A stretch of 64,000 bases of DNA from Vicinamibacteria bacterium (GTDB taxonomy: Bacteria; Acidobacteriota; Vicinamibacteria; Fen-336; CBDFGD01). Below the pieces are notes generated by a model that had not been told where the DNA came from, made no database searches, and saw nothing but the letters and a program-made list of their open reading frames with translations. Below, piece by piece: positions 6,351 through 39,668 of this stretch. How positions within the stretch are numbered: the stretch's first letter is position 1; each line of letters begins with the position of its first letter. The stretch is from assembly GCA_965246965.1 (NCBI GenBank), contig CBDFGD010000002.1, positions 3,701,208 to 3,765,207 on the forward strand, in the 5' to 3' direction. Both the position numbers and the translations under genes were made by a program.

Positions 6351-7604
6351 TCAAGACCGTAATCTAGGAAATTCCGTCATCAGATAGACCGTGCGCCACA
6401 ACCACCACGCCAGGAAGCCGGAGACCTGGAAGCCGAACACTTCGGCCACGGCGCTTCTGTGGCCGAGCGAGCCCATCTGACCGAGGCCCTTGAAGTCGTA
6501 GCGTTTCTTCGAGCCGCCGCGGACCGTGGCGACGACGTTGTGAGCGGCGATGGCCGCCTGGCGCGTCGCGTGCTGTGCGGTTGGGGGCGCGATACCGCCG
6601 CCTGGCGCCGGTACCCTCGCCGTGTCGCCGAGCGCCCAGACGCTGTGGCCGCTATCGACGTGCAGCTCTTGGTTGACGAGGAGCCTGCCGTTCTCGCTGC
6701 AGGGCAGCCCCAGCGCAGAGACCAGCGGATGAGGGAACGACGGCACCGTCGACACGAGCGTTCGCGTCGGGATGCGCTCCCCGCCCTCGAGGACTGCTTC
6801 GGTTCCGGTCGCGGCGTGGAGCCGCGTGAGCAGCCTCAGGTCGACACCGCGCTTCTTGAGCAGCCGTTGCGCGAACAGGGCCAGCTGCTCCGAGACCTCG
6901 GGAAGCACCCGGTCGCGCGAGTGCAGCAGGACGACGCGAAGCTCCGAAGCATCGATGCCGCGGTAGCTCTTGGCAACGCCGCGCACGAAGTCGTTCAGCT
7001 CGGCGACGACCTCGACGCCGGAGAAGCCGCCGCCCGCGACTACGAACGTCAGCAGCTGTCGACGCAGCTCCGGGTCCGACTCGATCGAGGCCTCCTCGAG
7101 GGCGTGGATGACGTGATTGCGGAGGGCGAGCGCGTCGCCCATGTTCTTGAACGGCATCGCGTGCTCGGGCAGGCCGCGCATGCCGCGAAAGTCCGTGACG
7201 GTGCCGAGGGCGACGACCAGGTGGTCGAAGGGGATCACGTGAGGCTGGGGCCGGAAACCCGGCGCCGTGATGATCTGCTTGTGCTAGACGTCGACGCGCT
7301 CGATCTCGCGCACGTGAATGTCGGTGCGCGGCAGCATGCGGCGCAGCGGGCTGACGATGTCCAGGATGCCGACGCCACCCGAGATCACCTCGGGCAGCAT
7401 CGGCTGGAAGACGAAGTAGTTCTCCTTGTTGACGAGGGCGATCTCGAAATCGTCCCCGCGTCCGAGCCGCTTCTCCAGCTCGAGGGCCGTGTAGACGCCG
7501 GCAAAGCCGCCGCCGAGGACCACGACTCGCGGCTTGCGTGGAGCCGTCAGTGGGCGACTCCGATCAACGGCGGCCACGGAGACACAGAGACGCAGAGAAC
7601 GCAC
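6351..7604 (-). pseudogene. ndh: Type II NADH dehydrogenase (NDH-2, ndh) with in-frame TAG and transposon-truncated C-terminus
   Basis: VVVLGGGFAGVYTA dinucleotide fold and second GGGFSGVE motif. In-frame TAG at 7284-7286 (VDV*HKQII) with the same frame continuing. Last 9 codons (MTEFPRLRS*) are encoded by the transposon IR-R. Confidence 0.7.
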
Positions 7605-7820
7605 GGAGGAACGGCAGGCTTCGATCGGTCGTCATCCCGATCGAGGGCATGTGGATCCCGATCGGTCCGCGGCGATCGACTCGCACCACGAGGTGCGACC
7701 GTGTTGCACTCCAAGGCGCGGCCGCCTGGCTTCTTCGAGACGCGGTCAAAGCTGGCTCGTTCTCCGTGTCTCTGTGCCTCTGTGGCTCACCAGATCGTCA
7801 GCTGCTCACCCGGGGTTGGG

Positions 7821-9111: not shown

Positions 9112-10950
9112 TCAGCCACGCGCGAAGAAGGCGAGGATCGCGAAGTAGGCGACGATCCAGAACAGCGTCGCTCCGACGGGAAGCCGATCGTTGTCGGGGC
9201 TGTAGAGACCGTCCGGCGCGGCCGCGCGTAGCCAGGCCAGCGGATCTCGTAGTCGTCGCTCGACGGTCGCGGCCCACGACGAGGATGCGCGTTCGAGGGC
9301 GGCGCCGCCTCGCGCCGCGAGCTGGGTCAGTGCCACACCGAGCCGCCCACCGGGGCGCCTGTAGAACCAGTCGGTATCGAGGCTGATCGTCTTGGGACCG
9401 CCGAGGCTGTCCCGCAGCCACCAGAAGGCGAGTCCCGTTCCGGCCAGCAGGTGCAGCGATGCGAGGACGTGGCCAGACGTGTAGGGGTGATACCCGGCGC
9501 GGAACGGGAGCCACGCATACAGCAGGCCGGGCTGCACGCCGATCGCGAAGCAGAGCGTGGCGGCGATCGCCATCGCGGCCAGCATGTTGCGCGGAACCGG
9601 CTTGACCTCGGCGTCGCAGCGCTCGCCGAAGAAGACGAAGTAGGGCAGCTTGAGGCCGGTATGAAGGAATGTGCCTACACTGGCCACGAGCAGCAGCAGC
9701 TCGACTCCTTCGCGACCGGCGGCGGCGGCGGCCGACACGATCATCGACTTGCTGACGAAGCCGTTGAACAGGGGAAAGCCCGAGATAGACACGGCCCCGA
9801 CGCAATACAGCAGCAGCACCGCCCGCATTCGCGGGGCGAGCCCTCCCAGCTCCGTGAGGCGGTGGCGTCCGGTAGCGTGGATCACCGCTCCGGCGCCCAT
9901 GAAGAGCAGCCCCTTGTAGAGGATGTGGCAGAAGGCGTGCGCCGCGGCGCCATCGAGGCTCAGCGCCGTGCCGAGGCCCACGCCGGTGACCATGTAGCCG
10001 ACCTGGCTGACGATGTGGTACGCGAGCAGCCGGCGGATGTCGTTCTCGAGCACCGCGTAGACGACGCCGTACAAGGCCATCGCCACTCCGAGCCCAACGA
10101 GGACATCGGCGCCGGGGAAGACCCGGATCAGGACGTAGACAGACGTCTTCGTCGCGAACGCGCTCAAGAAGACGGACGCCGTCACCGAAGCGCGCGGGTA
10201 CGCGTCCGTCAGCCAGGCGTGGAGCGGCGGGATCGCCGCGTTGATCGCGACGCCGCCGAGGATCAGCCAGAACGCGACCGGATCCTGCTCGCGGCTGAGG
10301 GGCGAGACCTGCATGCCGGCTCCTTGCCCGACCGTTCGCATGATGCCGGCGAGCAGCAGCGCTCCGCCGCTCGCGTGCAGCATCAGATAGCGCAACCCCG
10401 CACCGCGCGCGTCGTCTTCCTGGCCGAGCCAGATGAGGACCGCCGAGGCGACGGTGATCAGCTCCCATCCTGCGAACAAGGTGATCCAGTCGCCCGCGAA
10501 AACGACCAGCAGCGACCCGGTCGCGGCGACCAACACGGCCACGTGCTCGCGGCGCCTTTCGACGTGCATCGCGTAGAGGGAGCCGATCACGGTGATCAGC
10601 GTGAAGACCAGACCGAAGAGCCAGCTCAGCCGATCGACGTAAAGAGGCGCCAGATCCCACGCGCCCAGGTGAAGCAAGGACGACTGACCCGGGGCGAGAT
10701 TCAGGACCATGGCGGCGCTCGTGAGCGCGCCTGTGAGCATGAGCGCGCCGCCGCCACGACCGCGGAGCGCGACGAGCAGGGCGCCCGTCGAGACGAGCGC
10801 GACAGCGGGATGGAGGCTCACGGTGACTCGTCGTCGTAGTAGCTCTCGGGCCGCTGCAGCCAGCGGCGTCCGAGCCACTTGGAGATCCAGACGATCGCCG
10901 CGCAGCCGACGAGGCCGAGGACCAGGTCGAAGCCCGGCAGACTGCGCCAA
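9112..10950 (-). CDS. Mrp-type antiporter subunit A/D-like (NuoL/M/N family proton-pumping subunit); true start uncertain
   Basis: Multi-TM ORF with the NuoL/MrpD pattern (WLTDAYPRASVTASVFLSAFATKTSVY..., HAFCHILYKGLLFMGAGAV); last gene of the Mrp-like cluster. Confidence 0.7.
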   Translation of the reverse strand: MAQSAGLRPGPRPRRLRGDRLDLQVARTPLAAAARELLRRRVTVSLHPAVALVSTGALLVALRGRGGGALMLTGALTSAAMVLNLAPGQSSLLHLGAWDLAPLYVDRLSWLFGLVFTLITVIGSLYAMHVERRREHVAVLVAATGSLLVVFAGDWITLFAGWELITVASAVLIWLGQEDDARGAGLRYLMLHASGGALLLAGIMRTVGQGAGMQVSPLSREQDPVAFWLILGGVAINAAIPPLHAWLTDAYPRASVTASVFLSAFATKTSVYVLIRVFPGADVLVGLGVAMALYGVVYAVLENDIRRLLAYHIVSQVGYMVTGVGLGTALSLDGAAAHAFCHILYKGLLFMGAGAVIHATGRHRLTELGGLAPRMRAVLLLYCVGAVSISGFPLFNGFVSKSMIVSAAAAAGREGVELLLLVASVGTFLHTGLKLPYFVFFGERCDAEVKPVPRNMLAAMAIAATLCFAIGVQPGLLYAWLPFRAGYHPYTSGHVLASLHLLAGTGLAFWWLRDSLGGPKTISLDTDWFYRRPGGRLGVALTQLAARGGAALERASSSWAATVERRLRDPLAWLRAAAPDGLYSPDNDRLPVGATLFWIVAYFAILAFFARG

Positions 10951-11023
10951 CCTCCGGTCTCGGCGGCCGAAGCGGCGCGCGCGAGGAGTGCGGCGGGGAG
11001 GGTGATTGCCGCTACGGTCCTGC

Positions 11024-12529
11024 TCATGGTCCGACGGCCCAGCGAACCGGCGCGATCACGACGTCTTCGGCGGCGATCGTTGCGAGCTGGTACAGATCGA
11101 ACAGGGCGTCGGGGTAGATGCCCAGCACGACGCTCGCTCCCGCGGTCGCCGCGATCGGGAGCCAGAGTCGCTTATCCCGTGGCTCGAGGGGCTGGGTCGG
11201 CACGTACTCGTCGAAGAAGCCGGTCCGCACGATCGGGATGAGATAGGCCAGATTCAGCACGCCGCTCAGGACGAGCAGCGGGACGAACAGCGCCCGACCT
11301 GCTTCGACGGCGCCCAGGCCGAGGCTCCACTTACTGACGAAGCCGACAAAGAGCGGCACGCCGGCCAACCCCAGAGCAGCGACGCCGAAGGCCGCGAAGG
11401 TGATGGGCATGTGTCGCCCCAACCCCGCGAGGCCGCTGATGAAGCCGCGCCCCGATGTCCGCTGGATCGCCCCCGCGCAGAAGAACAGCGTGATCTTCAT
11501 GAAGGCGTGGGCGGCGATGTGGAAGAAGGCGCCGAGCAGCGCCAGAAACGAGCCCAGAGCAGCGCCGAGCAGGATGTACGAGAGCTGGCCGATGGTCGAG
11601 TAGGCGAGGCGTCGCTTGAGGTGGTCCTCGCCGAAGGCCCGCAGCGACGCCAACAGGATCGTCGTTCCGGCGAGCGCCGCCAGCGCCACGTCGAGACCCA
11701 ACCCACGCATCAGATCGACGCCGAATACGAAACCCACCACGCGCAGACAGCCGAACACGCCGGCCTTGACGACCGCCACCGCGTGCAGCAGCGCGCTCAC
11801 CGGCGTAGGCGCCACCATTGCGGCCGGCAGCCAGCCGTGGAGGGGCATCAGCGCTGCCTTGACCCCCAAGCCCCCGATGAAGAGCGCGAACAGCGCGACG
11901 CCAGTGAGGTCCGAAACGGCACCGTCGAGAAAGCCGCCTCCGCGAAAGCCCTCGCCGGGAAGGATCCAGGATGTCCAGACCACCGCCACCAGCAACAGCT
12001 GCCCGCCGGTCAACGTGTAGAGCAGATACTTTCTCCCGGCGGCCACCGCCTCCTCGGTCCGGTTGAAGACGACCAGCGGGTAGGTGGCGAGCGTCAACAG
12101 CTCGTAGAAGACGAAGAAAGTCGGCAGGTTCGCTGCGAACGCCACGCCGATCGTCGCGCCCAGGCAAAGAGCGAAGCTGGCGAAGTAGCGCGGCTTTCGC
12201 GCCTCGTCCTCGACCTGGATGTAGCCGAGCGAGTAGACGGAGGTCAAGAGCCAGAGCGTCGAGGCGACGAGGGCAAAGAGCAACCCGAGCGCGTCGACGC
12301 GCAGCTGCAGGTCGTGACCCGGAAAGAGCGGCCAGGCGGGAGACGCCACTGTCCCACCGGCCCGGACGACGGGGAGCAGCGAGACGACGACGCCCAGCTT
12401 GACCACGGCGGCGACCAGCGTCCACAGCATCGCGAGCCCCGCCAGGCGCCGCGTCGCGAGGATGAGCACGGCGGCGATCAGCGAAACGGTGACGGCGATC
12501 ACGGGTCGCCAGGAGACCAGCTCGATCAC
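11024..12529 (-). CDS. Mrp antiporter subunit D-like (NuoM/N family), second paralog
   Basis: WLPAAMVAPTPVSALLHAVAVVKAGVFG and HIAAHAFMKITLFFCAGAI motifs; 501 aa; overlaps neighbour by 4 bp. Confidence 0.8.
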   Translation of the reverse strand: MIELVSWRPVIAVTVSLIAAVLILATRRLAGLAMLWTLVAAVVKLGVVVSLLPVVRAGGTVASPAWPLFPGHDLQLRVDALGLLFALVASTLWLLTSVYSLGYIQVEDEARKPRYFASFALCLGATIGVAFAANLPTFFVFYELLTLATYPLVVFNRTEEAVAAGRKYLLYTLTGGQLLLVAVVWTSWILPGEGFRGGGFLDGAVSDLTGVALFALFIGGLGVKAALMPLHGWLPAAMVAPTPVSALLHAVAVVKAGVFGCLRVVGFVFGVDLMRGLGLDVALAALAGTTILLASLRAFGEDHLKRRLAYSTIGQLSYILLGAALGSFLALLGAFFHIAAHAFMKITLFFCAGAIQRTSGRGFISGLAGLGRHMPITFAAFGVAALGLAGVPLFVGFVSKWSLGLGAVEAGRALFVPLLVLSGVLNLAYLIPIVRTGFFDEYVPTQPLEPRDKRLWLPIAATAGASVVLGIYPDALFDLYQLATIAAEDVVIAPVRWAVGP

Positions 12530-13983
12530 TGCAGGCCCGCAGGCAGCGCCGCGCGGATCACGTGCGCCACGATCGGCTGATTGAACAGGCCGACGAGCGC
12601 GATGCCCGCGGCGAGCGTCGCGATCGGGGCGAGCATCGCGGCGGGCAGCTCCGCGGCGGACGCCCCCTCCGGCGCGGGACGCAGATAGACGCGCTCGAGC
12701 AGGCGGAAGCAGTAGCCTGCCGTGAGCAGCGAGCTCACCACGAGCGCGAAGACGGCGACGCCGTCACCCGCCTCGATCGCACCGATCAGGAGGTAGTACT
12801 TACTGAAGAAGCCCGCCGTCGGGGGCAGGCCGATCAGCGACAGCGTCGCGACGACGAAGGCCGCGCTGGTGGCGGGCATGCGACGGGACAGGCCGGAGAA
12901 ACGATCGAGTCGCACCTCGTGGCGCGAGCCGGCGACGCCGCCCGCGATCAGGAACAGACAGGATTTCATCAGCCCGTGGTGGAGGACGTGCAGCAGCGCG
13001 CCGGTCAGCCCGGCGGCGTTGCCGAGCGCCACGCCGAGCAGAATCGCGCCCATCTGCGCGACGCTCGAGTAGGCCAGCATGCGCCGCACCTCCCGTTGCG
13101 CGATCGCCAGGGCGGAACCCGCGAGGATGGCGACGCAGGCCGCCCAGCTCAGCAGAGGCAGCGCGTGGGCGGCGGGTCCGGCGGCGTCGAACACCCCGTA
13201 CAGGATGCGGATCAAGGCGAAGACGCTGACCTTGGCCATGACCCCCGACGTGAACGCCGCGACGGGCGTCGAGGCGTAGCTGTAGACGTCCGGCAGCCAG
13301 CCATGCAGCGGGAACAGCGCCGCCTTCACCGACAGGCCGACCGTGATGAGCCCCAGCGCCACGGCTAGCGCGGACGTCGCGCCGCTCGCGGGGAGGCGAG
13401 CGGCGACGTCGGCCATGTTCAGCGAGCCGGTCAGCGCGTACAGGTAGCCGACGCCGAGGAGATAGAGGCTGCCGGCCACGGTGCCGACGAGCAGGTAGCG
13501 GAAGCCGGCGACGGCGGCCCTGTCTCCGCCCGAAGCGGTGAGCGCGTACGCCGCCAGGCCGGAAATCTCGAGAAAGACGTAGAGGTTGAACAGGTCGCCG
13601 GTGAGGGTCATGCCGACGAGGCCGCCGACGAGCAGCAGGTAAAGCGAGGCGAACGCCCCTGCCGAGATCCCCGCTCGCGCCGCGTCGCGGCCGGAGTAGA
13701 TCCACACGAGCAGAGCGATCAGCTGTAAGAGCGCCGCGAGGGCGGCCGCCACCGGGCCGGCGATCAGCTCGATGCCCCAGGGCGGCGGCCAGCCTCCGAC
13801 GAAGTGGCGCACGCTGCCCAGCTTCAACGTCTCGCCCAGCAGGCCGCAGCACGTAACGAGGCCGGCGACCAGGCTCCAGAGCGTGACGAGACGTACCGCC
13901 CGCGCGGAGCGCAGTCCGACCAACGGAGCGGCGAGCGCGCCGATCAGCGGGACGACGATCGCGAGCGGGAGCGCGCTCGTCAA
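12526..13983 (-). CDS. Mrp antiporter subunit D-like (NuoM/N family), first paralog
   Basis: WLPDVYSYASTPVAAFTSGVMAKVSVF and HVLHHGLMKSCLFLIAGGV motifs; 485 aa. Confidence 0.8.
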   Translation of the reverse strand: MTSALPLAIVVPLIGALAAPLVGLRSARAVRLVTLWSLVAGLVTCCGLLGETLKLGSVRHFVGGWPPPWGIELIAGPVAAALAALLQLIALLVWIYSGRDAARAGISAGAFASLYLLLVGGLVGMTLTGDLFNLYVFLEISGLAAYALTASGGDRAAVAGFRYLLVGTVAGSLYLLGVGYLYALTGSLNMADVAARLPASGATSALAVALGLITVGLSVKAALFPLHGWLPDVYSYASTPVAAFTSGVMAKVSVFALIRILYGVFDAAGPAAHALPLLSWAACVAILAGSALAIAQREVRRMLAYSSVAQMGAILLGVALGNAAGLTGALLHVLHHGLMKSCLFLIAGGVAGSRHEVRLDRFSGLSRRMPATSAAFVVATLSLIGLPPTAGFFSKYYLLIGAIEAGDGVAVFALVVSSLLTAGYCFRLLERVYLRPAPEGASAAELPAAMLAPIATLAAGIALVGLFNQPIVAHVIRAALPAGLQ

Positions 13984-14345
13984 CGTTCGCGCATTCGTTG
14001 CAGAAGCTCGTGCTCATCGAGAGTGCCGTAGCGCCGCGAGATGCGGATCAGCAGTGCCAGAGCCACGCCCGTCGTGCTGACCGCGACGACGATCGCCGTC
14101 AGCATCAGCGTGTGAGGGAGCGGGTTCGCGTAGTCACTCGCGCGCAACAATGACTCGCCGTGCGCGGCCACGGGCGGCGCGGCCTGAGTTTTGTGGCCCA
14201 GGAGTATGAAGAAGACGATCACGCCGACCTGGAGGATGTTGAGCGCCATCAGCTTGCGGAGCAGGTTGGGCGTCTGCACCAACCCGAGCAGACCCAGCGC
14301 TACCAGCGTGACGGTAGCCAGGTAGGCGGCGTCCGAGGCGCTCAT
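13980..14345 (-). CDS. Mrp antiporter subunit C (NuoK-like)
   Basis: 121-aa 3-TM protein, LMALNILQVGVIVFFILLG pattern; operon position between B and D. Confidence 0.8.
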   Translation of the reverse strand: MSASDAAYLATVTLVALGLLGLVQTPNLLRKLMALNILQVGVIVFFILLGHKTQAAPPVAAHGESLLRASDYANPLPHTLMLTAIVVAVSTTGVALALLIRISRRYGTLDEHELLQRMRER

Positions 14346-15073
14346 GCGGCCGCGTCGTCGTCCGAAACGGGGGCGAGGCAGTAGAAGATCAGGGACAGCA
14401 CGCCGGTGACGGCAATGAACACGCTGGCCTCGATGACCAGGGTCGAGAGCGCTCGCTTGGCCGCTCCCGCGGCCGGCAGTGGCAACGCCGAGTAGTCGAG
14501 GTAGCTGCCGCCGAATGCGAGCGCGGCCGCGCCGATCCCGGCGTACAAGAGAGCGCCGCCGCAGGCGAGCGCGACGGCCGCCTCGGGCCTCAGTCCCCAG
14601 GCGACGTCCCGGCCGTGGACCAGACGGACGAGGATCAAGGCGCCAGCCAACACCGCGCCGCCCTGAAAGCCACCCCCGGGGCTGTCGTGTCCGTGGGCGA
14701 GGACGTAGGCGGCGAAGAGCATCAGAAACGGCGTGAGCAATCGCACGGCGGCGTCCAGCACCGGGCTGCCGAAGGCCGCCGGCGCCGGCCGTCGCTCCGC
14801 GGTCGCGTGGCCGCCGAGGAGCAGCAGCATGCAGGCGATTCCGGCGGCGAAGACGACGAGCGTCTCCCCGAGCGTGTCGAAGCCGCGATAGTCGGCGAGC
14901 ACGGCGGTCACCATGTTGTCGGCGCCGGTCTCCGCCCGAGCCCTCTCGATGTAGCGCGGGGAAACGTGGCGGGACGCGGGCGAGTCCGGATCACCGAGCG
15001 ACGGTAGGTCGCGGGCCGCCCAGAACAGCAGCGCCGCCGCCGGCAGCGCTGCCAGCCAGGCCGCCCGCCTCAC
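14342..15073 (-). CDS. Mrp antiporter subunit B (MnhB-like)
   Basis: Contains the MnhB signature ...ETGADNMVTAVLADYRGFDTLGE.... Candidate GTG start at 15073 overlaps the stop of the upstream DUF4040 ORF (GTGA). Confidence 0.65.
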   Translation of the reverse strand: MRRAAWLAALPAAALLFWAARDLPSLGDPDSPASRHVSPRYIERARAETGADNMVTAVLADYRGFDTLGETLVVFAAGIACMLLLLGGHATAERRPAPAAFGSPVLDAAVRLLTPFLMLFAAYVLAHGHDSPGGGFQGGAVLAGALILVRLVHGRDVAWGLRPEAAVALACGGALLYAGIGAAALAFGGSYLDYSALPLPAAGAAKRALSTLVIEASVFIAVTGVLSLIFYCLAPVSDDDAAA

Positions 15074-15333
15074 CGGCGAGCCCTCCGACCGGTGCGGTCG
15101 ATGGCGACGACGAAGAAGACCGTCGTGATGGCGCCACCGATGACGGCCTCCGTGAGGGCGACGTCTACGGCGCCGAGCACGGCAAAGAACAGCGCCGAGA
15201 AGAAGCTGAACGCGCTGAAGACGAGGACCGCCGCGAACAGGTCGCGGACGAGCAGCACGGCGACGGCGCATGCGAGCATGCACACGAGAAACAGCGCGGC
15301 GAGGGGCTCCGTCACTCGGGACTCCGACGCCAC
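15070..15333 (-). CDS. DUF4040-like small membrane protein (MnhB N-terminal / MbhD-like)
   Basis: 87-aa 3-TM ORF ...AVDVALTEAVIGGAITTVFF... typical of the MrpA-C-terminal/MrpB-N-terminal domain. May be fused to the downstream mrpB if a frameshift is present. Confidence 0.55.
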   Translation of the reverse strand: MASESRVTEPLAALFLVCMLACAVAVLLVRDLFAAVLVFSAFSFFSALFFAVLGAVDVALTEAVIGGAITTVFFVVAIDRTGRRARR

Positions 15334-15611
15334 GGCTTCAGGCCGGCTCGATACGCCGCGCGGCCCAGCGCGTGTGTCGCCGTGGGGTTGGCGAGCGCGA
15401 CGAAGAGCAGGATCAACAGGATCTTGCCGCTCTCGAGCACGAAGCCTTCGAGCGCGGCGATTCCGAGCGCGACGAGGGCCATGCCGAGGGTGTCGTTCTT
15501 GCCGAGCACGTGAAGGCGCGTGTAGAAATCGGGGAGGCGGATGACGCCGACGGCGCCCGTGAGGAGAATCAGGGTGCCGGCCGCCAGCAGCGGGAGGGCG
15601 ACCACGCTCAT
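15312..15611 (-). CDS. Mrp antiporter subunit G
   Basis: 99 aa, LLTGAVGVIRLPDFYTRLHVLGKNDTLG motif of MnhG. Confidence 0.75.
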   Translation of the reverse strand: MSVVALPLLAAGTLILLTGAVGVIRLPDFYTRLHVLGKNDTLGMALVALGIAALEGFVLESGKILLILLFVALANPTATHALGRAAYRAGLKPWRRSPE

Positions 15612-15877
15612 TCGGCCGCCTTGCGGATCTCGACGTAGCGCGCCAGCGCCAGCGTTCCGATGAAAGCGATCATCGCGTAGGCGAGCGCGATGTCGAGGTA
15701 GACGTCGAGGCGATCGCTCAACTCTCCGACCAGCAGCAGCAATACGATCGTCTTGGTGAGCATGACACCGAGGCCGCTGAGTCGATCCCAGATCGTTGGG
15801 CCACGCAGCACCCGGTACAGCGCCGCGAGCAGTCCGAGCAGGATCGCGCCGCCCGCGGCTTGAAGGGCGTACGTCAT
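15608..15877 (-). CDS. Mrp antiporter subunit F
   Basis: 89 aa, YRVLRGPTIWDRLSGLGVM pattern of MnhF. Confidence 0.75.
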   Translation of the reverse strand: MTYALQAAGGAILLGLLAALYRVLRGPTIWDRLSGLGVMLTKTIVLLLLVGELSDRLDVYLDIALAYAMIAFIGTLALARYVEIRKAAE

Positions 15878-16425
15878 TTCGTTTCGGGGGGCGCCTCGAA
15901 CAGCGCTGCGACTCTCGTGACCAGGGGGTCGGAGGCGTCGATCCGATCCCCTCGCGTCAGCGCGTGGACGACGTACTCGTCGCCCTCGACGTCGAGGGTC
16001 ACCGTGCCGGGAGTCAGCGTTATCGAGTTGGCCAGCGTGAGCCTGGCGAGATTGTGAGGCAGCGGGCGGGTGACGCGAACGACGTCAGGATCGATAGGCA
16101 GGGACGGGTGAATCACCACGTAAGCGACCTGCAGGCTCGCCTGGACGATGCGCACGATCAGCCACGGTATGTAGCCGAGCAGGCGCATCCAGGGGTGGCC
16201 CGCGAGCGGGTGCTCGCCGGGGTTTCCGATCGGGGGTGCGAGCAGCAGCAGCGGCTGCGTCGCCACCGCGATCCCGAGGGCGCTCAGGATGCCCAGGCCG
16301 AGATGGAATGGATCGGCCCGGCCCGAAAGGAGCAGCCAGAAGAAGAGCAGAACGCCCGCGAGCGGGAGTACGTGCCGACCGAAACGGCGTGGGATCCGGC
16401 TCGGGGCCGGCTGGCGCTGGCTCAC
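15874..16425 (-). CDS. Mrp antiporter subunit E
   Basis: 183 aa, two N-terminal TM helices and soluble C-domain resembling MnhE; first gene of the cluster. Confidence 0.65.
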   Translation of the reverse strand: MSQRQPAPSRIPRRFGRHVLPLAGVLLFFWLLLSGRADPFHLGLGILSALGIAVATQPLLLLAPPIGNPGEHPLAGHPWMRLLGYIPWLIVRIVQASLQVAYVVIHPSLPIDPDVVRVTRPLPHNLARLTLANSITLTPGTVTLDVEGDEYVVHALTRGDRIDASDPLVTRVAALFEAPPETK

Positions 16426-30544: not shown

Positions 30545-32048
30545 CTAGGAGTCTGCGCGGCAGTAGTTCAGCCCGGGTGTGTCATCGTGCCTTGTGACCC
30601 GAGAGATCATCTTGCCTGGGTTAAACGGCAGTAGTGGGCTCGCGGACGAGTGCTCGCGAGGGAGGACGGGCGGATCCAAGGCCGGGCGGTGGTCATACCC
30701 AGACCATCTTCTGATTGAGTCTCCTGAGGTTGAGCGCCAAGCAAACGAGATTCCACTCGGCGCTGGTTTTCTCAAGCCCTCGAAGGCTGAAGGATTGGAA
30801 ACCAAGCACAGCCTTGATCCATCCGAATGGCGGTTCGCCGAGTTTGCGCCGCTTGTACCACTTGCGACCACGTTTTCATGCGGAGCGTCGCTTCGAGCTT
30901 CGAATTCGACGTTGGTGGAGAGTCTTTCTTTTCTCTCCCCAGAGCCACGAAACCGTCGATTCCGGTACGTTCCAAGTGCAGTAGGTTCTTTTCGGAACGG
31001 TAGCCGGCATCGGCCAGGGCACGCTTGGGCTTCTCACCGGTGTTGGCTTGAGCCGTTTTCAGCATCGGCTCGAGCTGACCGACATCCGCAGCGTTGTTGA
31101 TCAACCCGGTCGCAACGATCAGCTGCGATTTCTCGTCGACGGCGGCTTGGGCATTGAAGCACTGCTGGTAGCCACTCGAATCCTTCATGATGCGGCTTTC
31201 GGGATCGGTGAAGTTGTCCTGCTTCTTGTCCGGAGGTACGCCAAATCTCCTTTTGAACTTTGACCCTCGCTTCGATTCCTTGTCATCCCCTGGCCGACGT
31301 CCGGCCTGCTGATCTTCTTCCTTCTGACGGGCCTCCAGACGTGCCTTCGCTGCTTGGATTTTCTTGAGCCGTGAATCTCGGCGCGCCAGCTCTTCTGGCA
31401 GTTCGTCGCCACGAAAATCAGGACCAAACTCGACGTCTTCCGCAGCATCTTCTTGTTTCGCAAGAGCGGTGATAGCCCGAATCTCTCGACGGAGCTGTTT
31501 CTCCGTTTTCTTCATACGCTCGTAGCTCATCGCCTTGTGCTTGCTGGCATTCGCCTTGACCTTCGTTCCATCCAGAATCAACGTCCCAAGCTTGACCAAA
31601 CCCACTTCTTGAGCCAGACGCACGACTTGGACGAATACAGATCGAAACTGGGACAAATGGTCACAACGGAAATCACTGATCGTCCGGTGTGCCGGGAAAT
31701 TGCCTCCGCTCAAATAACGGTATGCGACATCCTCTTCCAGCTTCTTCGCGATCCCACGAGACGAAAACGTCCCTGTCGCATAGCCGTAGATCAGAACCTT
31801 CAGCATCATTCGAGGATCGAATCGTCGGTTCCGACGTCCATCGCCCTCGTAGCGCTCGTAGAAAGCACGCACATCCATCGCCTCCACCGTATCCGAGATG
31901 AAAAACGAAAGATGACCCTCCGGAAGCCAGTCTCGTGGATTCGACGGAAACAAACTCGATCGGTCAGGACTGTACGGACGGAAACTCGTTCCCATAACTT
32001 CAAAAACGCTCATTCACCCGATTTCGTTCCTGCCGCGCAGACTCCTAG
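30545..32048 (-). mobile_element. IS1182-family insertion sequence, 1504 bp, 19-bp perfect terminal inverted repeats beginning with CTAG
   Basis: CTAGGAGTCTGCGCGGCAG at 30545-30563 and its exact reverse complement at 32030-32048. Lower GC than the flanks; contains a single transposase gene. Confidence 0.8.
30772..32013 (-). CDS. IS1182-family transposase
   Basis: 413 aa; [34 protein letters not shown]...[12 protein letters not shown]... and [13 protein letters not shown] motifs typical of IS1182/ISH3-like transposases. C-terminus may be truncated. Confidence 0.75.
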
Positions 32049-32085: not shown

Positions 32086-32829
32086 ATGCGGTATGATCGC
32101 GATTCCGGCCTCCTCAAGCGGAAGCCATCATCGCGAGCGTACCTCTTGGGCCTTCTCGACATCTTCCGGGGCAAACTCACAGACCCCACCTCCTTTTCGG
32201 GCGTCCAGGGCGGCGGAGACGTCATCACCACCCGCGTCGACGCTCTCGTCAAGTGGGGACGCAAGTCCTCAATCTGGCCGATGCCTTTCGGCACCGCTTG
32301 CTGTGCGATCGAGTTCATGGCGCTTTCCGCCTCGCACTACGATCTGGCCCGGTTCGGCGCCGAGGTGTTGCGTTTTTCGCCCCGGCAGGCCGACCTGATG
32401 TTCGTGGCGGGCACCATCGTCGATAAGGAAGCCCCGATCCTCAAGCGCATCTACGATCAGATGCCCGACCCGAAATGGGTCATCTCGATGGGCGTCTGCG
32501 CCTCCTCAGGAGGGTTCTACCGTTCGTATCACACCATGCAGGGCATCGACGAGATCATTCCGGTCGACGTGTACGTGCCCGGCTGCCCCCCCTCGCCCGA
32601 GGCGCTGATCGCCGCGGTGATGAAGGTGCAGGAGAGAATCCAGCTGGGCGAGCAGCAGAAGACGCCGCAGGGCGCCGCTCGACTCGGTGCCTCCGGCGAG
32701 GCCGCCAAAGACCGTCGCGAGCGCCGCGCCGCCTGGGCCAGGGATGATGCGCAGCGGCGCGAGCAGGATCTCGAGCCGCGCGGGGAGATCGCCTTTGGTG
32801 AATCTCCGGGCGGCGCCGCCCGCGAATGA
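32086..32829 (+). CDS. nuoB: NADH-quinone oxidoreductase subunit B (NuoB, 4Fe-4S N2)
   Basis: ...[24 protein letters not shown]...DVYVPGCPP; stop overlaps nuoCD start (ATGA). Confidence 0.85.
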
Positions 32830-34526
32830 GTAGCCCGAGCGCGGTGGTCGCGAGCGCTTCGCCGCCCGCCGCCCGCGCGCTCGGCCAGCGCCTCGGAGCC
32901 GCCGTCGAGGAGTCTTCTGAATTCCGCGGCGAGCAGTCCCTCACGGTGAATCGGCGGGCCTGGGTCGAGGCCGCGACGCTGCTTCGGGACGATCCCGACC
33001 TCGACTTCAAGCTGTTCCTCGATCTGTGCGGGGTCGACTACCTCGACGAGGACAGCCGCGACCGCTACGAGGTCGTCCTGCACCTCTACTCGCTGTCGAG
33101 TGGAGATCGGGTCCGGTTGAAGACGCGGTTGCCCGAGGAAGACCCCGCCCTCGACACGCTGTGCGGCGTCTTCAAAGGCGCGAACTGGTTCGAGCGCGAG
33201 GCGTGGGACCTCTACGGCATCGTTTTCGAAGGCCACCCGAAGCTGACGCGTATCCTCACCCACGACTCCTTCGTCGGGCACCCGATGCGGAAGGACTACC
33301 CGACCGGGCACCGCCACGTTCTGAAGGAGGCCAAGTCCCACCTGCTCGAAGTGCCCGAGAACACGGAGCACATGCTCGTCAACATCGGTCCCTCCCATCC
33401 CGCGATGCACGGCACCTTCCGGGTCCAGGCGTTACTCGATGGGGAGACGATAGAGGACTGCGAAGCCGAGATCGGCTACATGCACCGCAACTTCGAGAAG
33501 ATGGCCGAAGAGCGGACCTACTGGCAGATCATCCCGTACACGGATCGGCTGAACTACTGCTCCTCGTTCATGAACGGCCACGGCTGGGCCCTCGCCACGG
33601 AGAAGTTGCTCGGCATCGAGGCGCCCCCGCGAGCCGAGGCGGTGCGCGTGATCCTCTCCGAGCTGTCCCGCATCATGGACCACTTCATCTGCGTCGGCAC
33701 GAACGTCGTCGACCTCGGGGGCATGACGCCGTTCTTCATCCTGTTCCGTGCCCGCGAGGCGATCTACGACGTCCTCGATGCCGTCTGCGGGGCGCGGCTC
33801 ACGGTCTCCTACGTGCGGATCGGAGGCCTCGCCCAGGACGTGCCCGACGATTTCGACGCGCGCTGCCGGGCCGCGATGGCCAGTGTGCTTGAGGTGACCG
33901 AGCAGGCCAAAAAATTGCTGACGCGGAACATCATCTTCACGAAACGCTTCAAGGATGTCGGCGTGATGTCCAGGGAAGACGCCCTGTCCTACGGCTGGGT
34001 GGGTCCGTGCCTGCGCGGCTCCGGTGTCGACTTCGATCTGCGCAAGGACCAGCCGTACTCCGGTTACGAGCAGTACGACTTCGACGTGCCCGTCGGCAGC
34101 GTGGGCGATTGCTACGACCGCTACCTCGTCCGGATGGAGGAGATCCGTCAGAGCGTGCGGATCGTCGATCAGGCGCTGAAGACGCTGCCCGAGGGGCCCG
34201 TGATCGTCGATGACAAGGCGGTCGCGCTACCGCCCAAGTCCGAGGTCTACTCGAACATCGAAGCGCTGATGAATCATTTCAAGCTCGTCTACGACGGCAT
34301 CCTGCCGCCCCCGGGCGAGGTGTACGGCGCGACCGAAGCTGCGAACGGAGAACTCGGCTACTACATCGTGTCCGACGGCCGCAAGCACCCGCGGCGCGTG
34401 AAGGTGCGGCCGCCCTGCTACAACATCTACCAGGCCTTCCCCGAAATGATCCGCGGTTGCACGATCGCCGACGCGGTCGCCATCATCGGAGGTCTCAACG
34501 TGATCGCGGGAGAGCTCGACAGGTAA
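32826..34526 (+). CDS. nuoCD: NADH-quinone oxidoreductase fused subunits C/D (NuoCD)
   Basis: 566 aa; NuoC 30-kDa region followed by NuoD 49-kDa region (...[14 protein letters not shown]..., C-terminal ...[14 protein letters not shown]...). Confidence 0.9.
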
Positions 34527-34528
34527 CC

Positions 34529-36119
34529 ATGCCGAAATGCACCATCGACGGGCGCGAGATCGAGGTCGAGCCCGGCACGACCGTGATCCGCGCCGCTCTC
34601 GAGCTGGGGATAGAGATCCCGCATTTCTGCTGGCACCCCGACCTGCCCGTGGACGGCAACTGCCGCATGTGCCTCGTCGAAGTCGAGAAGATGCCAAAGC
34701 TCCAGATCGCGTGCAACAGCCAGGTCAACGACGGCATGGTGGTTCGCACGGACAGTGAAGCCGCGAAGCAGGCGCACCGCACGACCCTCGAGTTCCTGCT
34801 CGTCAACCACCCCATCGATTGCCCCGTGTGTGATCACGCCGGCGAGTGCTACCTGCAGGACCACTACATGGATCACGGTGGCCACGACTCCAAGATCGAG
34901 CTCGAAGAGAAGGTCCGGAAGCGCAAGGTCGTCGACCTCGGGCCGATCATGCTCGACGCCGAGCGCTGCGTGCTCTGCTCACGCTGCATCCGCTTCGAGA
35001 GCGAGGTTACCGGCACGAACAGCTTCGAGTTCGTGAACCGCGGCGACCAAACGCAGATCTCGACGTATCAGAATCGACCGATCACGCACGGCTACGCCGG
35101 CAACCTCGCCGACGTGTGCCCCGTCGGCGCACTGCTCTCCCACGACTTCCGCTTCCGGATGCGGGTGTGGTTTCTCGAGTCGACGGACTCGATCTGTCCC
35201 GGATGCTCGACGGGCTGCAACATCCATCTCGATCACCGCGACGGCGAAGCGCAGCGCTTCCGGCCGCGCCGCAACGTGCAGGTCAACAAGTCCTGGATGT
35301 GCGATGAGGGGCGGGCCCTCTACGCGGGGCTCGGTTCACCAGACCGCCTGAGCCAGGCGCGACTGAACGGAGCGGCCTCGAGCCTCGACGACGCGCTGGA
35401 CGCCGTGGCCGACGCCCTTCGCGACGCAGGATCGTGCGGCGATGCTGGCGAGCCCGCAGGCCAGCAACGAGGACCTTTTCGCACTGCGGCGGCTCGCGGA
35501 CGTGACCGGCGCGCGGCTCGACTTTCGCGTAGGCGATCCCCAGGACAAGCTGCAGGTCCGAGAGGACGAGATCCTGCTCCGCGCCGACCGCAATCCCAAC
35601 ACCAGGGGTTGCCTCGATCGGCAGATGGGGCGCAGCGGCGTGGCGCCGATCCTGGACGCGTGTCGAGCTGGCGAGGTCGAGCTGCTCTTCCTTCAGGATG
35701 CCGGCCTGCTCGACAACGAGCCGCTGGCCGCGGTCGCGAAAGCGGCAAAGAGAGTGGTCGTCATGGCGACCCATGAATCGGCTTCTGCGGACGCGCCGTT
35801 CGCCGTCCTTCCGGCGGCGACCTGGGCGGAGAGCGACGGTACCTTCACCAACTACGCGAGGCGCGTGCAGCGTTTCAAGCGCGCCTTCACCGCGCCCGGC
35901 GCCGCACGGCCCCGCTGGGAGCTGGCCGCCCTGTTGCTGCGACGCCTCGGCGAGCCATTCGAGGCTTCTTCGGCGCGCGACGTATTTCGGCTGCTGGCCC
36001 GGGAGGTCTCCATTTACGCGAGCCTGAGTCATCAGACGATCGGCACGGGAGGCCGCGCTGTCGGCGAGGAACCGGACGCCGCTGCGGCGGCCGAAAGCGG
36101 CGCCGAGGCGAGGGCGTAG
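34529..36119 (+). CDS. nuoG: NADH-quinone oxidoreductase subunit G (short NuoG); single-base frameshift near 35425-35445
   Basis: 2Fe-2S and 4Fe-4S cysteine motifs (CRMCLVEV, HPIDCPVCDHAGEC, CVLCSRCIRF). Frame 2 up to ...ALRDAG, then frame 0 ...AMLASPQASNEDLFALRRLADV... to the TAG at 36117. Confidence 0.8.
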
Positions 36120-36121
36120 CG

Positions 36122-36709
36122 GTGGCCGCCAAGACCGTCACCGTCAACCGGGACACGAGGCCTGGTGTCGTCCCGATTCTGTTCGGGATGTGGATCACGC
36201 TCCGGAACTTGATCCAGTCGTGGTTCATGGGAAAGGTGAGCACGATCCAGTTTCCTGAGCAGAAGCGCACGATCTCGAGTCGCTACCGGGGCATCCATCT
36301 GCTCACCGTGCGGGAGGACGAGTCTCCCAAGTGCGTCGCCTGCTACATGTGCGCGACGGTCTGCCCGGCGGAGTGCATCCACATCGAATCCGCCGAGCGT
36401 CCCGAGGAGACGATCGAGAAGTATCCGACGCGCTTCGAGATCGATCTGCTGCGGTGCGTGTACTGCGGCTTCTGCGTGGACGCCTGCCCGGAGGAGGCGA
36501 TCATGATGAGCCGCGAGAACGACCTCGTCGGCACTTCACGAAAGGAGCTGATCATCGACCGCGATCGGCTGATCGATCGCGGCAAGCTCGCCGAGGCCGG
36601 AGCGGGCTACCGGCCGTCCGACCACGATGTGCGTCGTCCCGTCCGCATCGCGGCGCTCGAGCGGCTCGAGAAGGAGCACGGGATCGTTCCGGGGATGCCG
36701 AAGCGGTAA
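36122..36709 (+). CDS. nuoI: NADH-quinone oxidoreductase subunit I (NuoI, 2x 4Fe-4S ferredoxin)
   Basis: GTG start; CVACYMCATVCP and CVYCGFCVDACP motifs. Confidence 0.85.
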   Translation: MAAKTVTVNRDTRPGVVPILFGMWITLRNLIQSWFMGKVSTIQFPEQKRTISSRYRGIHLLTVREDESPKCVACYMCATVCPAECIHIESAERPEETIEKYPTRFEIDLLRCVYCGFCVDACPEEAIMMSRENDLVGTSRKELIIDRDRLIDRGKLAEAGAGYRPSDHDVRRPVRIAALERLEKEHGIVPGMPKR

Positions 36710-37085: not shown

Positions 37086-37220
37086 CTAGCGCCGCTTGAC
37101 GTGCTCGAGAGGGACGAACTGGGATTTTGCGGGGCGTGGGCCGGGGCCGAGTTTGCGCCAGAGGTAGGCGAGGGCGGCGGCGACGATCAGCCAGACGGTG
37201 ACGTCTTGCCAGCTATGCAC
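37086..37220 (-). CDS. Small single-TM protein immediately downstream of feoB (FeoB-associated small membrane protein-like)
   Basis: GTG overlapping the feoB TAG; 44 aa, VHSWQDVTVWLIVAAALAYLWRKLGPGP...; no Cys-rich tail. Confidence 0.3.
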   Translation of the reverse strand: MHSWQDVTVWLIVAAALAYLWRKLGPGPRPAKSQFVPLEHVKRR

Positions 37221-39387
37221 CGAGGCCGACTCCCAGCAGGCGCCCGCCCTGGTAGACGACGAGCGAAGCGAAGTAGGCGAGCAGAGACATCGCTGCGAAC
37301 ATCATCGCGGGCCAACGCCATGAGCCGGACTCCTTGCGGATCACAGCGATCGTGCTCATGCACTGACACGCGAACACGAAGAAGACCATCAGCGAGACGC
37401 CGGCCAGCGGCGTCATCAGCGGCGCTCCGTCGGGCCAGGTGGCGCCGTGCAGTGCGAGGCGCAGCGGTTGACTCGCCTCGTCGGCCTCCCCGATGTCGAA
37501 GACTATGGCGAGCGTCGAGATGAAGACCTCGCGGGCCGCGAAGGCGCCCAGGATTCCGACGCCGATGCGCCAGTCGAAGCCGAGCGGCTCGATGATCGGC
37601 TCGATCGCGCGGCCCAGGTGACCCATGAAGCTGGCCCGCAGGGCTGCGCCCGAAGCGGCGGCTTCGCTCGACGCGACCTCCGCTATCGCGACGGGAGTGT
37701 CGGCGTTGGGCATCGCCGGCGCATCGGGCAGACGCGGGTAGCTCAGCAGGGCCCAGAGGACGATCGTGAGTGCGAGGATGACGCTGCCGGCGTCGGTGAG
37801 GAATGTTCTCACCGGCCGCCAGGTCCCGGTGACCAGATTGCGCCAGGCCGGCATCCGGTAGGGCGGCATCTCGAGCACCAGCGTCGGGCGCGGTCCCCGC
37901 AGCACCGTCCGTCGCATCACGGCGGCCGCGCCAATGGCCGCGACGACCGAGAGCAGGTACATCGTGAGCAGCACGAGGGCGCCAATGCTGAGAAATCCGA
38001 ACACGCGTAGAGCGGGGTCGAAGACGGCGGCCGTCACCAGCACGTAGACCGGCAGGCGCGCGCTGCAGGACATCAGCGGAATCGCGAGCATCGTCAACAG
38101 CCGATCGCGTGGCTTCTCGATCGTGCGCGTAGCGATGACCGCTGGGATGGCGCAGGCGAAGCCGGACAGCATCGGCACGAAGGCCTTCCCGTGCAGGCCG
38201 ATGCCTCCCATCAGCCGGTCGATGACGAAGGCGACGCGGGCGAGGTAGCCCGAGTCTTCGAGCAGCGTGATGAGCAGGAAGAGCAATCCGATCTGCGGGA
38301 CGAACACGAGCACGTTGCCGACACCCGCCATCACGCCTTCCACGAGGAGGTCCCGAAGCGGCCCCCCGGGAAGGGCGCTCGTCGCGGCGCCCTGAGCCCG
38401 GGCAATGCCGATTTCGATGAGCCCCATCATGGGCTCGGCCCAGCTGAAGAGCGACTGGAAGACGATCAGCATCACCGCCGCGAACGACAGCGCGCCCCAG
38501 AGCCGGTGAGTGAGGATGCCGTCCAGGACATCGGTGAGCGAGCGACTCTCCGGGGGCGATTCGCTCACGCAGTCGGCCACGATGCCGTCGATCACGCCGT
38601 ATCGCGCGGCGATGATCTCCCCATCCAGGTCACGCCCGGCTCTTTCGGCGCGTGCCCGGACCGCTCGGACGACGTCTCGGAGATTTGCGGGGACGCCTTC
38701 GAGCTCGTCGTCGTCAGCGAGCGAGAGGAGCGCCCACAGCGCCCAGGGGCGGGTCGGGCCCGGGCCGACGGGGCTCACGCCGAGAGTGGCCTCGACCTCT
38801 TCGACGTCAGCGACGAGCGTCGTGGGAAGCTCGATCGCAGCCGGCGCGGGTCGCGGCGGATCGCGCAGCGCCTCGCGAAGCTGATCAATCCCCTCGCCGC
38901 GGCGCGCCACCATCGGAACGACCGGTACGCCGAGGCATTGGCTCAGCCTGGCGGTGTCGATCTCGAGCCCCTGGTCTCGCGCTTCGTCCATCAGGTTCAG
39001 CGCGACCACCAGCGGCACACCGGCCTCGGCCAGCTGGCTGATGAGGTACAGGCTCCGTCCGAGCGCCGTCGCGTCGGCCACGGCGATGACCGCACGAGGC
39101 GGCGCGAGGTCGCGACCGAGCAGGGCGTCGACCGCGATCTGCTCGTCGCGCGATCCGGCGCTGACACTGTACGTTCCTGGGAGGTCGAGGATCTCGACTC
39201 TCTGGCCGTCGCCCAGGGTCATCCACCCGGAGAGGCGTCCGACCGTGATGCCGGGGTAGTTACCGACCCTGGCGCGCGCGCCGGTGAGCAGATTGAACAG
39301 GGTGGTCTTGCCGCTGTTTGCGTTGCCCGCGATGAGCAGGTGTCCGGGCCGCTCGAACCTCGCTGCCGCCGCGGGCGCAGGAGTCAT
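37213..39387 (-). CDS. feoB: Ferrous iron transporter FeoB
   Basis: N-terminal G-domain LLIAGNANSGKTTLFN...DLPGTYS followed by a large polytopic membrane domain; 724 aa. Confidence 0.9.
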   Translation of the reverse strand: MTPAPAAAARFERPGHLLIAGNANSGKTTLFNLLTGARARVGNYPGITVGRLSGWMTLGDGQRVEILDLPGTYSVSAGSRDEQIAVDALLGRDLAPPRAVIAVADATALGRSLYLISQLAEAGVPLVVALNLMDEARDQGLEIDTARLSQCLGVPVVPMVARRGEGIDQLREALRDPPRPAPAAIELPTTLVADVEEVEATLGVSPVGPGPTRPWALWALLSLADDDELEGVPANLRDVVRAVRARAERAGRDLDGEIIAARYGVIDGIVADCVSESPPESRSLTDVLDGILTHRLWGALSFAAVMLIVFQSLFSWAEPMMGLIEIGIARAQGAATSALPGGPLRDLLVEGVMAGVGNVLVFVPQIGLLFLLITLLEDSGYLARVAFVIDRLMGGIGLHGKAFVPMLSGFACAIPAVIATRTIEKPRDRLLTMLAIPLMSCSARLPVYVLVTAAVFDPALRVFGFLSIGALVLLTMYLLSVVAAIGAAAVMRRTVLRGPRPTLVLEMPPYRMPAWRNLVTGTWRPVRTFLTDAGSVILALTIVLWALLSYPRLPDAPAMPNADTPVAIAEVASSEAAASGAALRASFMGHLGRAIEPIIEPLGFDWRIGVGILGAFAAREVFISTLAIVFDIGEADEASQPLRLALHGATWPDGAPLMTPLAGVSLMVFFVFACQCMSTIAVIRKESGSWRWPAMMFAAMSLLAYFASLVVYQGGRLLGVGLGA

Positions 39388-39668
39388 CGCTCGGCGCGCA
39401 GCGCGGTCCGCTGCTGTGGCTCGACCTCGATGCGCTCGGCTTCCGAGCGGCGAATCGACAGCGAGAAGCCCCGCAGCCGCAGCTCGATCGGATCACCGAG
39501 TGGGGCGATTCGGCGCACCTGGACGGTCGTCCCCGGGAGCAATCCCATCTCCAGCAGCCGCCGTGCGACGTTTCGCTCGCAGCGAAGCTTTGCGACGGTG
39601 GCGCAGGCTCCGATACTCAGCTCGGCGAGCTGGCGCGCCACCCCAGGCGGCGCGGAACTGTCGGACAT
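39384..39668 (-). CDS. feoA: Ferrous iron transport protein FeoA
   Basis: 94-aa SH3-like protein; overlaps feoB start by 4 bp. Confidence 0.8.
   Translation of the reverse strand: MSDSSAPPGVARQLAELSIGACATVAKLRCERNVARRLLEMGLLPGTTVQVRRIAPLGDPIELRLRGFSLSIRRSEAERIEVEPQQRTALRAER

Follow-up and report, generated by a model that had tools for sequence, protein, structure and literature searches.

Does a cluster of only four nuo genes represent the remnant of a broken complex I operon, or a native unit of an enzyme whose genes are distributed over the genome? The question is raised by a 64,000-nucleotide stretch of DNA (hereafter the window; G+C content of ~66%) from contig CBDFGD010000002.1 of the Vicinamibacteria bacterium assembly GCA_965246965.1 (positions 3,701,208 to 3,765,207, forward strand). 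Four consecutive plus-strand genes, nuoB, a fused nuoCD, nuoG and nuoI, were annotated by Pfam at 32086/32146-36709 of the window, and NCBIfam agreed. An earlier inspection of the letters without database searches (the sequence-only reading) had described the same order, with a short, frameshifted G and with feoAB following on the other strand, which is borne out by both profile collections and by the coordinates. The best explanation of the present data is that the four genes form a self-contained, conserved operon of Vicinamibacteria (Acidobacteriota), predicted to encode four cofactor-bearing hydrophilic subunits of complex I. Within a genuine NADH:quinone oxidoreductase encoded at several loci, this B-CD-G-I operon is probably one of the transcription units.

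Identity and conservation of the B-CD-G-I unit

The identity of the four products was examined by profile models, ligand motifs and structural matches. NuoB scored 229.3 with TIGR01957 (cutoff 142.7) and 229.9 with NF005012 (cutoff 116), NuoC 133.8 with TIGR01961 (cutoff 122.45), NuoD 484.5 with TIGR01962 (cutoff 459.35) and 482 with NF004739 (cutoff 360), and NuoI 123.2 with TIGR01971 (cutoff 113.05). The four cysteine ligands of cluster N2 are present in NuoB (CC...C...CP), the quinone-site His and Tyr motifs in NuoD (GPSHPAMHG and DRLNY, respectively), and two CxxCxxCxxxCP motifs (N6a/N6b) in NuoI. In frame-corrected NuoG, the ligand motifs of N1b, N5, N4 and N7 were all found. NuoG stayed below the TIGR01973 equivalog cutoff (419.7 vs 470.05 bits; best stretch at profile positions 2-339 of 606), as this model describes the long form and is matched well by the N-terminal ~335 residues only. 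When compared with the solved NDUFS1, it aligned at NDUFS1 residues 35-358 and 529-628, with ~170 internal and ~90 C-terminal residues missing. Since the same G architecture occurs in canonical operons, the low score reflects length and not a different family. The closest solved structures are those of E. coli and mitochondrial complex I, and the best match of NuoCD is E. coli 7p61_C (E=3e-121). These scores and motifs identify the four genes as encoding bona fide complex I (Nuo) subunits whose predicted cofactor sites are intact.

The genes are closely packed. The nuoB stop and the nuoCD start overlap (ATGA), and the CD/G and G/I spacers are 2 nt each; the contiguity described by the sequence-only reading was therefore confirmed, while the overlapping stops and starts that it reported apply to the B/CD junction only. 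The two parts of nuoG, when joined, encode 529 amino acids (aa). The TTG at 32146 is the nuoB start that matches the MGLLD... of relatives. NuoB and NuoI of the window are 79-80% and 77-78% identical, respectively, to their counterparts in two homologous loci, L001 and L002 (homologous loci are numbered with the prefix L). Neither NuoA, E, F and H, the local absence of which had been pointed out before, nor NuoJ, K, L, M and N could be found in the 64-kb window by tblastn with reference proteins. In addition, the C-terminus of NuoB (32650-32829) forms a charged extension of ~60 residues rich in R, E, A and Q; Vicinamibacteria orthologues (229-230 aa) have an extension of the same length.

The nearest NuoCD homologues (75-89% identical) came from soil metagenomes and metagenome-assembled genomes (MAGs), the taxon-named one being from Vicinamibacteria; an exact-sequence look-up of the window NuoCD matched no record. 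Both L001 and L002 carry B-CD-G-I with an intact G of 528/529 aa, amid unrelated flanking genes. By scanning one genome per GTDB species, 80 loci were obtained, whose gene content was annotated by tblastn. B-CD-G-I was detected in ~30 Vicinamibacteria loci (71-78% identity), with all four genes shown in 26 of the 31 other loci, and G was intact (528-533 aa) in the units of these other Vicinamibacteria loci. The same unit was also present in three Eisenbacteria loci and in L030. Across all four genes, the ratio of nonsynonymous to synonymous substitution rates (dN/dS) was 0.02-0.17 in four of five close pairs and ~0.1-0.3 in the fifth. No flanking family was found in more than 11 of the 26 Vicinamibacteria loci and none adjacent to the unit, so that the unit ends where the sequence-only reading had placed its end. 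Judged by its recurrence and by these substitution ratios, the B-CD-G-I unit is conserved and under purifying selection.

Related lineages show other gene contents. A three-gene unit, B-CD-I, was observed in ~30 Thermoanaerobaculia or Holophagales-type loci (L031-L069), with no other nuo gene within the fetched flanks (up to 10 kb on each side). B-CD-E-F-G-I was detected in Bdellovibrionales and one other MAG, and the distant loci of the species scan have the canonical order A-B-C-D-E-F-G-H-I-J-K-L-M-N. In the Bdellovibrionaceae locus L062, Pfam revealed E, F and a 529-aa G followed directly by I, and L055 contains a canonical operon with a 526-aa G, the NuoA of which was confirmed by Pfam. 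A G of ~526-530 aa stands beside E/F in L055, L062 and L083, and its occurrence in canonical and E/F-bearing clusters implies that a short G is normal for this complex I lineage. The sequence-only reading had considered the cluster truncated and the short G an oddity. Neither view can be upheld; B-CD-G-I is conserved as the native arrangement in ~30 species of Vicinamibacteria and likewise in Eisenbacteria.

By its model scores, NuoD belongs to complex I, as the Nuo models pass their cutoffs and those of FpoD and NdhH do not. A phylogeny of NuoD had been proposed as a check, and a neighbour-joining tree of the NuoD domain gathered all B-CD-G-I and B-CD-I loci in one group of 62 leaves, with the Bdellovibrio clusters and L055 outside, although this tree carries no support values and the branch that defines the group is short (0.011). 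No Vicinamibacteria genera were found in the supplement of a 2025 survey of complex I, and no specific description of Vicinamibacteria nuo genes was found in the literature.

In the proposed mechanism, the four products would form an electron wire that leads from NuoG (N1b, N4 and N5, with N7 off-path) through NuoI (N6a, N6b) and NuoB (N2) to the quinone site of NuoCD. They would dock on NuoH/A/J/K and antiporter-like subunits encoded elsewhere in the genome, and the electrons would most probably be supplied by NuoE/F, also encoded elsewhere; we infer both the existence and the identity of these partner genes. Related lineages with the same short G beside E/F do exist. With four hydrophilic iron-sulfur (Fe-S) subunits only, the cluster agrees with the earlier suggestion of a peripheral-arm module without local E, F and H that needs membrane subunits encoded elsewhere. 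Split nuo clusters occur commonly in bacteria (PMC12361115); for Bdellovibrionota, both a 'split arrangement' and a nuoAHJKLMN cluster at a separate site have been reported (PMC13147790), and a short NuoG (mean 493 aa) characterizes one complex I clade (PMC4453560).

State of the copy in the window

Two lesions were identified in the copy of the unit in the window (Table 1). The first is a defective IS1182-family insertion sequence (IS) directly upstream of nuoB, which the sequence-only reading missed. It ends 37 bp before the ATG at 32086 and 97 bp before the TTG at 32146, and it is bounded by perfect 19-nt terminal inverted repeats (30545-30563 and 32030-32048), each of which has CTAG at its outer end. 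The terminal repeat is present in two copies only in the window, compared with 0.05 expected by chance. The NCBIfam model transpos_IS1182 was matched at 298.9 bits (cutoff 270), and only profile positions 1-346 of 488 are encoded, indicating a member of the IS1182 family that is probably non-autonomous. The open reading frame (ORF) downstream of the transposase had no profile match. The G+C content of the IS region dips to 0.59, and its left flank is occupied by a divergently oriented membrane-protein ORF with no Pfam or NCBIfam match. The idea that the IS had split nuoA from nuoB was rejected, as excision in silico joined no NuoA to nuoB.

Table 1. Positions of the nuo genes, their lesions and neighbours in the window, and of the second nuo cluster in homologous loci.
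Feature	Position	Strand	Basis and remarks
IS1182-family element, defective, 1,504 bp	30545-32048	-	Inverted repeats, Pfam, NCBIfam
IS transposase ORF	30772-32013	-	Pfam DUF772 + DDE_Tnp_1
nuoB	32086 (ATG) or 32146 (TTG) to 32829	+	PF01058; 20-kDa/PSST subunit, carrier of cluster N2
nuoCD	32826-34526	+	PF00329 + PF00346 in one 566-aa ORF; fused 30-kDa + 49-kDa subunit
nuoG, 5' part (residues 1-302)	34529-35434	+	Fer2_4, NADH-G_4Fe-4S_3, Fer4_Nqo3, Molybdop_Fe4S4; N-terminal Fe-S domain with N1b, N5, N4 and N7
nuoG frameshift site	35435	+	Surplus T in ...GGA TCG T GCG GCG ATG..., or 2-nt deletion
nuoG, 3' part (residues 303-529)	35436-36119	+	PF00384; reduced molybdopterin-oxidoreductase-like domain, next frame
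nuoI	36122-36709	+	GTG start, 195 aa, Fer4 families; TYKY subunit, N6a/N6b; last gene of the unit
feoB	37213-39387	-	3' neighbour of the nuo cluster
feoA	39384-39668	-	3' neighbour of the nuo cluster
Upstream second nuo cluster	L002 1-4488; L006 2293-9182; also L007, L009, L012, L015, L022, L028, L029		

The second lesion is the frameshift in nuoG. By three-frame translation and alignment with 13 intact orthologues, a single event was located between ...LRDAGS and AAMLASPQ, where relatives have AGS-A-AAF/L, and tblastn splits the gene into two high-scoring segment pairs in different frames. The site is not a homopolymer. The N-terminal part of NuoG is 73-80% identical to Vicinamibacteria orthologues, which equals the range among these orthologues themselves. 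For the post-frameshift part, the identity is 50-59% compared with 62-78% among orthologues, with the family motifs retained. This part departs from conserved columns (those shared by at least 80% of orthologues) at 14.6% of them, against a median of 7.8%, and four orthologues show equal or higher values. For B, CD, I and the N-terminal part of G, the frequency of such departures stays in the range seen among intact orthologues.

These observations could also be read as those of a pseudogene, in which an IS insertion into the promoter region and the nuoG frameshift have inactivated the operon in this strain; such an outcome is a serious possibility, though on balance an unlikely one. The position of the IS, 37-97 bp 5' of nuoB, and a frameshift outside any homopolymer are what would be expected of an inactivated operon, whereas the deviation of B, CD, N-terminal G and I is no greater than that of intact orthologues and all cofactor ligands are intact. 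The post-frameshift part of G, which lies ~10 points below the inter-orthologue identity and departs from conserved columns at twice the median rate, points in the direction of decay, but the same region is equally or more divergent in four orthologues. Further signs of erosion are the truncation of the IS transposase itself and an in-frame TAG in an NDH-2-like gene of the window. On the other hand, several long-read MAG loci of the family (L028, L029) contain multiple frameshifts that resemble assembly errors, so that one indel, seen in one sequence, is little evidence of inactivation. A recent mutation and an assembly error look alike from one sequence. With both lesions, expression of the operon may be poor in this strain, or the operon may be inactive, provided that the frameshift is not a sequencing error.

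Several other features of the window were recorded. The NDH-2-like gene (6351-7631, minus strand) encodes a pyridine-nucleotide-disulphide oxidoreductase and is continuous except for the TAG at 7284-7286, which falls between ...ERVDV and HKQII...; both NADH dehydrogenase loci of the window, the nuo cluster and this gene, thus carry a lesion. Next to it, a low-GC patch (3312-6342; 0.57) contains an IS1595-family transposase (3312-4220) and a DNA methylase-HNH endonuclease fusion (4936-6342) and probably represents another mobile insertion. On the minus strand at 9112-16425, a complete Mrp/Mnh cation:proton antiporter operon is encoded in the order E-F-G-B(MbhE-like)-C-D-D-D with three antiporter-like subunits, an order reminiscent of the membrane module found in Mbh-type complexes. 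The distance between this operon and the nuo cluster is 16 kb, and the two are not linked in relatives. The three antiporter-like genes at 9-14 kb, which gave the only matches in the tblastn search for the missing Nuo subunits, were considered as candidates for NuoL/M/N and rejected, as they are members of this Mrp operon and one of them exceeds the MrpD equivalog cutoff. Scans for promoters, terminators, Rfam families and tRNAs gave no relevant feature.

Partner genes and alternative arrangements

If complex I is encoded at several loci, its remaining subunits should be found elsewhere. A NuoH-based metagenome scan revealed numerous split arrangements (H-J without I, E-H-J, F-H-J and A-H-J), and partial clusters in which I, G, F or B is missing are possible partners of B-CD-G-I; the named matches of the NuoH-based searches were Binatia or 'Deltaproteobacteria'. 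Abundant high-GC metagenome clusters (L167-L173, e.g., L170 7438-16760) have the gene order A-C-D-E-H-J-K-L-M-N, without B, F, G and I, and conserved flanks (patatin, NTP-transferase/APH). This gene set nearly complements B-CD-G-I and is thus a possible partner set. Among the other clusters, that of the groundwater contig L083 contains a toxin-antitoxin pair (Unstab_antitox/ParE-like; 9473-9996) between nuoE and nuoF, in an operon that is otherwise canonical but has no nuoI between H and J.

A number of findings weigh against a complex I assembled from several loci. No partner set of NuoA/E/F/H/J-N could be tied to any Vicinamibacteria genome, and when orphan E-F pairs were sought with a NuoF profile, only Bdellovibrio and lineages with canonical operons came up. 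The A-C-D-E-H-J-K-L-M-N clusters have a C and a D of their own with intact motifs, and their D falls elsewhere in the tree. Their assignment by composition (tetranucleotide comparison plus a masked-flank classifier with a cross-validated accuracy of 0.89) was inconsistent, the classifier giving 0.19-0.99 for four of these loci. Moreover, a second nuo cluster, A'-B'-C'-D'-H-I-J-K-N', lies 0.1-7 kb upstream of the unit in nine Vicinamibacteria loci (Table 1). It has a single N-like antiporter subunit and lacks L, M, E, F and G. The gap between this cluster and B-CD-G-I is 140 bp in L006, and such a tandem layout can be explained by the reduction of a second operon in situ no less well than by the relocation of genes. 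In the window itself, nuoG is frameshifted and the IS separates the cluster from any native upstream promoter. The missing support values of the NuoD tree, mentioned above, belong to the same side.

The window has no such second cluster, nor have about half of the loci whose upstream flanks are long; L055, a Deltaproteobacteria MAG, has the same tandem with both operons complete. These layouts lead to another reading, which is rather doubtful at present: a second nuo operon lost its genes for the membrane arm and NADH input instead of having them relocated, leaving B-CD-G-I as an alternative or swappable peripheral arm that docks on the membrane arm of another cluster and/or receives electrons from a donor other than NuoE/F, i.e., two isoforms for one membrane arm. 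The nine tandems with an 11-subunit-type cluster directly upstream speak for this reading, and the two complete tandem operons of L055 suggest reduction in situ; however, the upstream cluster is missing from the loci just mentioned, and where present it already includes B, C, D and I but no L or M, so that no obvious free docking site is left. The retained genes are exactly those of the hydrophilic Fe-S subunits, with all membrane subunits gone, which likewise speaks for it. With regard to the donor, the failure of the NuoF profile search to detect an orphan E-F pair is in its favour, as is the precedent of Campylobacter jejuni, in which NuoG works without NuoE/F and flavodoxin is used (PMC4453560). 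In contrast to Campylobacter, nothing in the 2-nt spacer between CD and G replaces E/F, and the short G keeps N1b together with the whole N-terminal domain (73-80% identity), as would be expected if NuoF/E were still bound. A different electron-input module, which the sequence-only reading had envisaged, is not favoured: the short G keeps all four Fe-S sites, N1b among them, and its homologues adjoin NuoE/F in related lineages.

Another view, also unlikely, is that B-CD-(G)-I represents an old 'satellite Q-module' family, maintained by purifying selection, that exists beside nuo clusters with their own C and D, and that the complex I of Vicinamibacteria mixes modules of different ancestry. Two versions are possible. 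In one of them, a main cluster of the type A-C-D-E-H-J-K-L-M-N draws B, G and I from the satellite; in the other, the satellite serves as one of two interchangeable peripheral arms for the same membrane arm.

The scenario named in advance as refuting, a decaying duplicate, is very improbable when applied to the family as a whole. Other nuo clusters in related genomes and canonical operons in similar soils might suggest that the four genes are the functionless leftover of a duplicated nuo operon, but order and reading frames are conserved in ~30 species-level Vicinamibacteria genomes and in other phyla, the dN/dS values of four of the five close pairs are low, and every Fe-S ligand is conserved; family-wide decay is contradicted by these conservation and selection data. 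The least probable reading, a group-4 [NiFe] hydrogenase-like, Fpo-like or cyanobacterial NDH-1-like module, could draw on the B, D and I subunits common to all those families and on the absence of E/F from the gene set but is already contradicted at the sequence level: the FpoD (340.7 vs cutoff 600), NdhH (348.4 vs 583), FpoI (65.2 vs 180) and ndhI (55.3 vs 302) models fail, formate hydrogenlyase and hydrogenase-4 iron-sulfur-subunit models are matched by NuoI far under their cutoffs, the D subunit has no cysteine pair at the aligned N-terminal metal-site position and does have both quinone-site motifs, the structures of Mbh, Mbs and formate hydrogenlyase in the PDB are far weaker matches (E values of 1e-41 to 1e-46) than complex I (1e-121), and a complex I-type NuoG belongs to the cluster.

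Comparison with known systems and significance

Among cultured organisms, Bdellovibrionota offer the best analogy for the split encoding. Their split nuo genes (L062, L070, L052) include a peripheral-arm-only operon with a fused CD, a 529-aa G, I after G and no H, as in the window, while E and F are located between CD and G there and the NuoD tree places these clusters apart from the B-CD-(G)-I group. The E. coli-type Nuo13 complex I (7p61, 7awt) shares the fused NuoCD and the N7 motif in G, whereas it is encoded by one 13-gene operon with a 908-aa NuoG, as opposed to four genes with a 529-aa G. The same short G architecture with the Fe-S motifs kept is found in 'clade C' of Spero et al. 2015 (mean 493 aa) and in L055, L083 and L085 (526 aa), but in these operons, A, E, F, H and J-N adjoin G.

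Two further systems resemble the unit in lacking E/F. In Campylobacter and Helicobacter, two substitute genes occupy the E/F position and the rest of the nuo operon is intact. As in the window, NuoG has no adjacent NuoE/F, and a flavodoxin is the donor there (PMC4453560); here, by contrast, the gap between CD and G is 2 nt, and A, H and J-N are also locally absent. The 11-subunit complex I-like enzymes, which have no N-module, are likewise encoded without E/F, but they have no G and contain A, H and J-N in the operon; the second cluster of L002/L006 is an example.

It is customary to regard the genes of complex I as a single operon and to predict function from its completeness. In an abundant class of soil bacteria, four hydrophilic Fe-S subunits are maintained as a conserved unit of their own, and related lineages keep three (B-CD-I) or six (B-CD-E-F-G-I). 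Pipelines that evaluate the 'completeness' of nuo genes on the basis of their clustering will misjudge such genomes. The finding is a gene-order variant of a known system and of modest interest as such; for this genome, a smaller practical point is that apparent lesions affect both NADH dehydrogenase loci of the window. The family provides a natural system for studying how expression and assembly of the peripheral and membrane arms are coordinated when their genes are unlinked, and whether an exchange of Q-modules between enzymes is possible.

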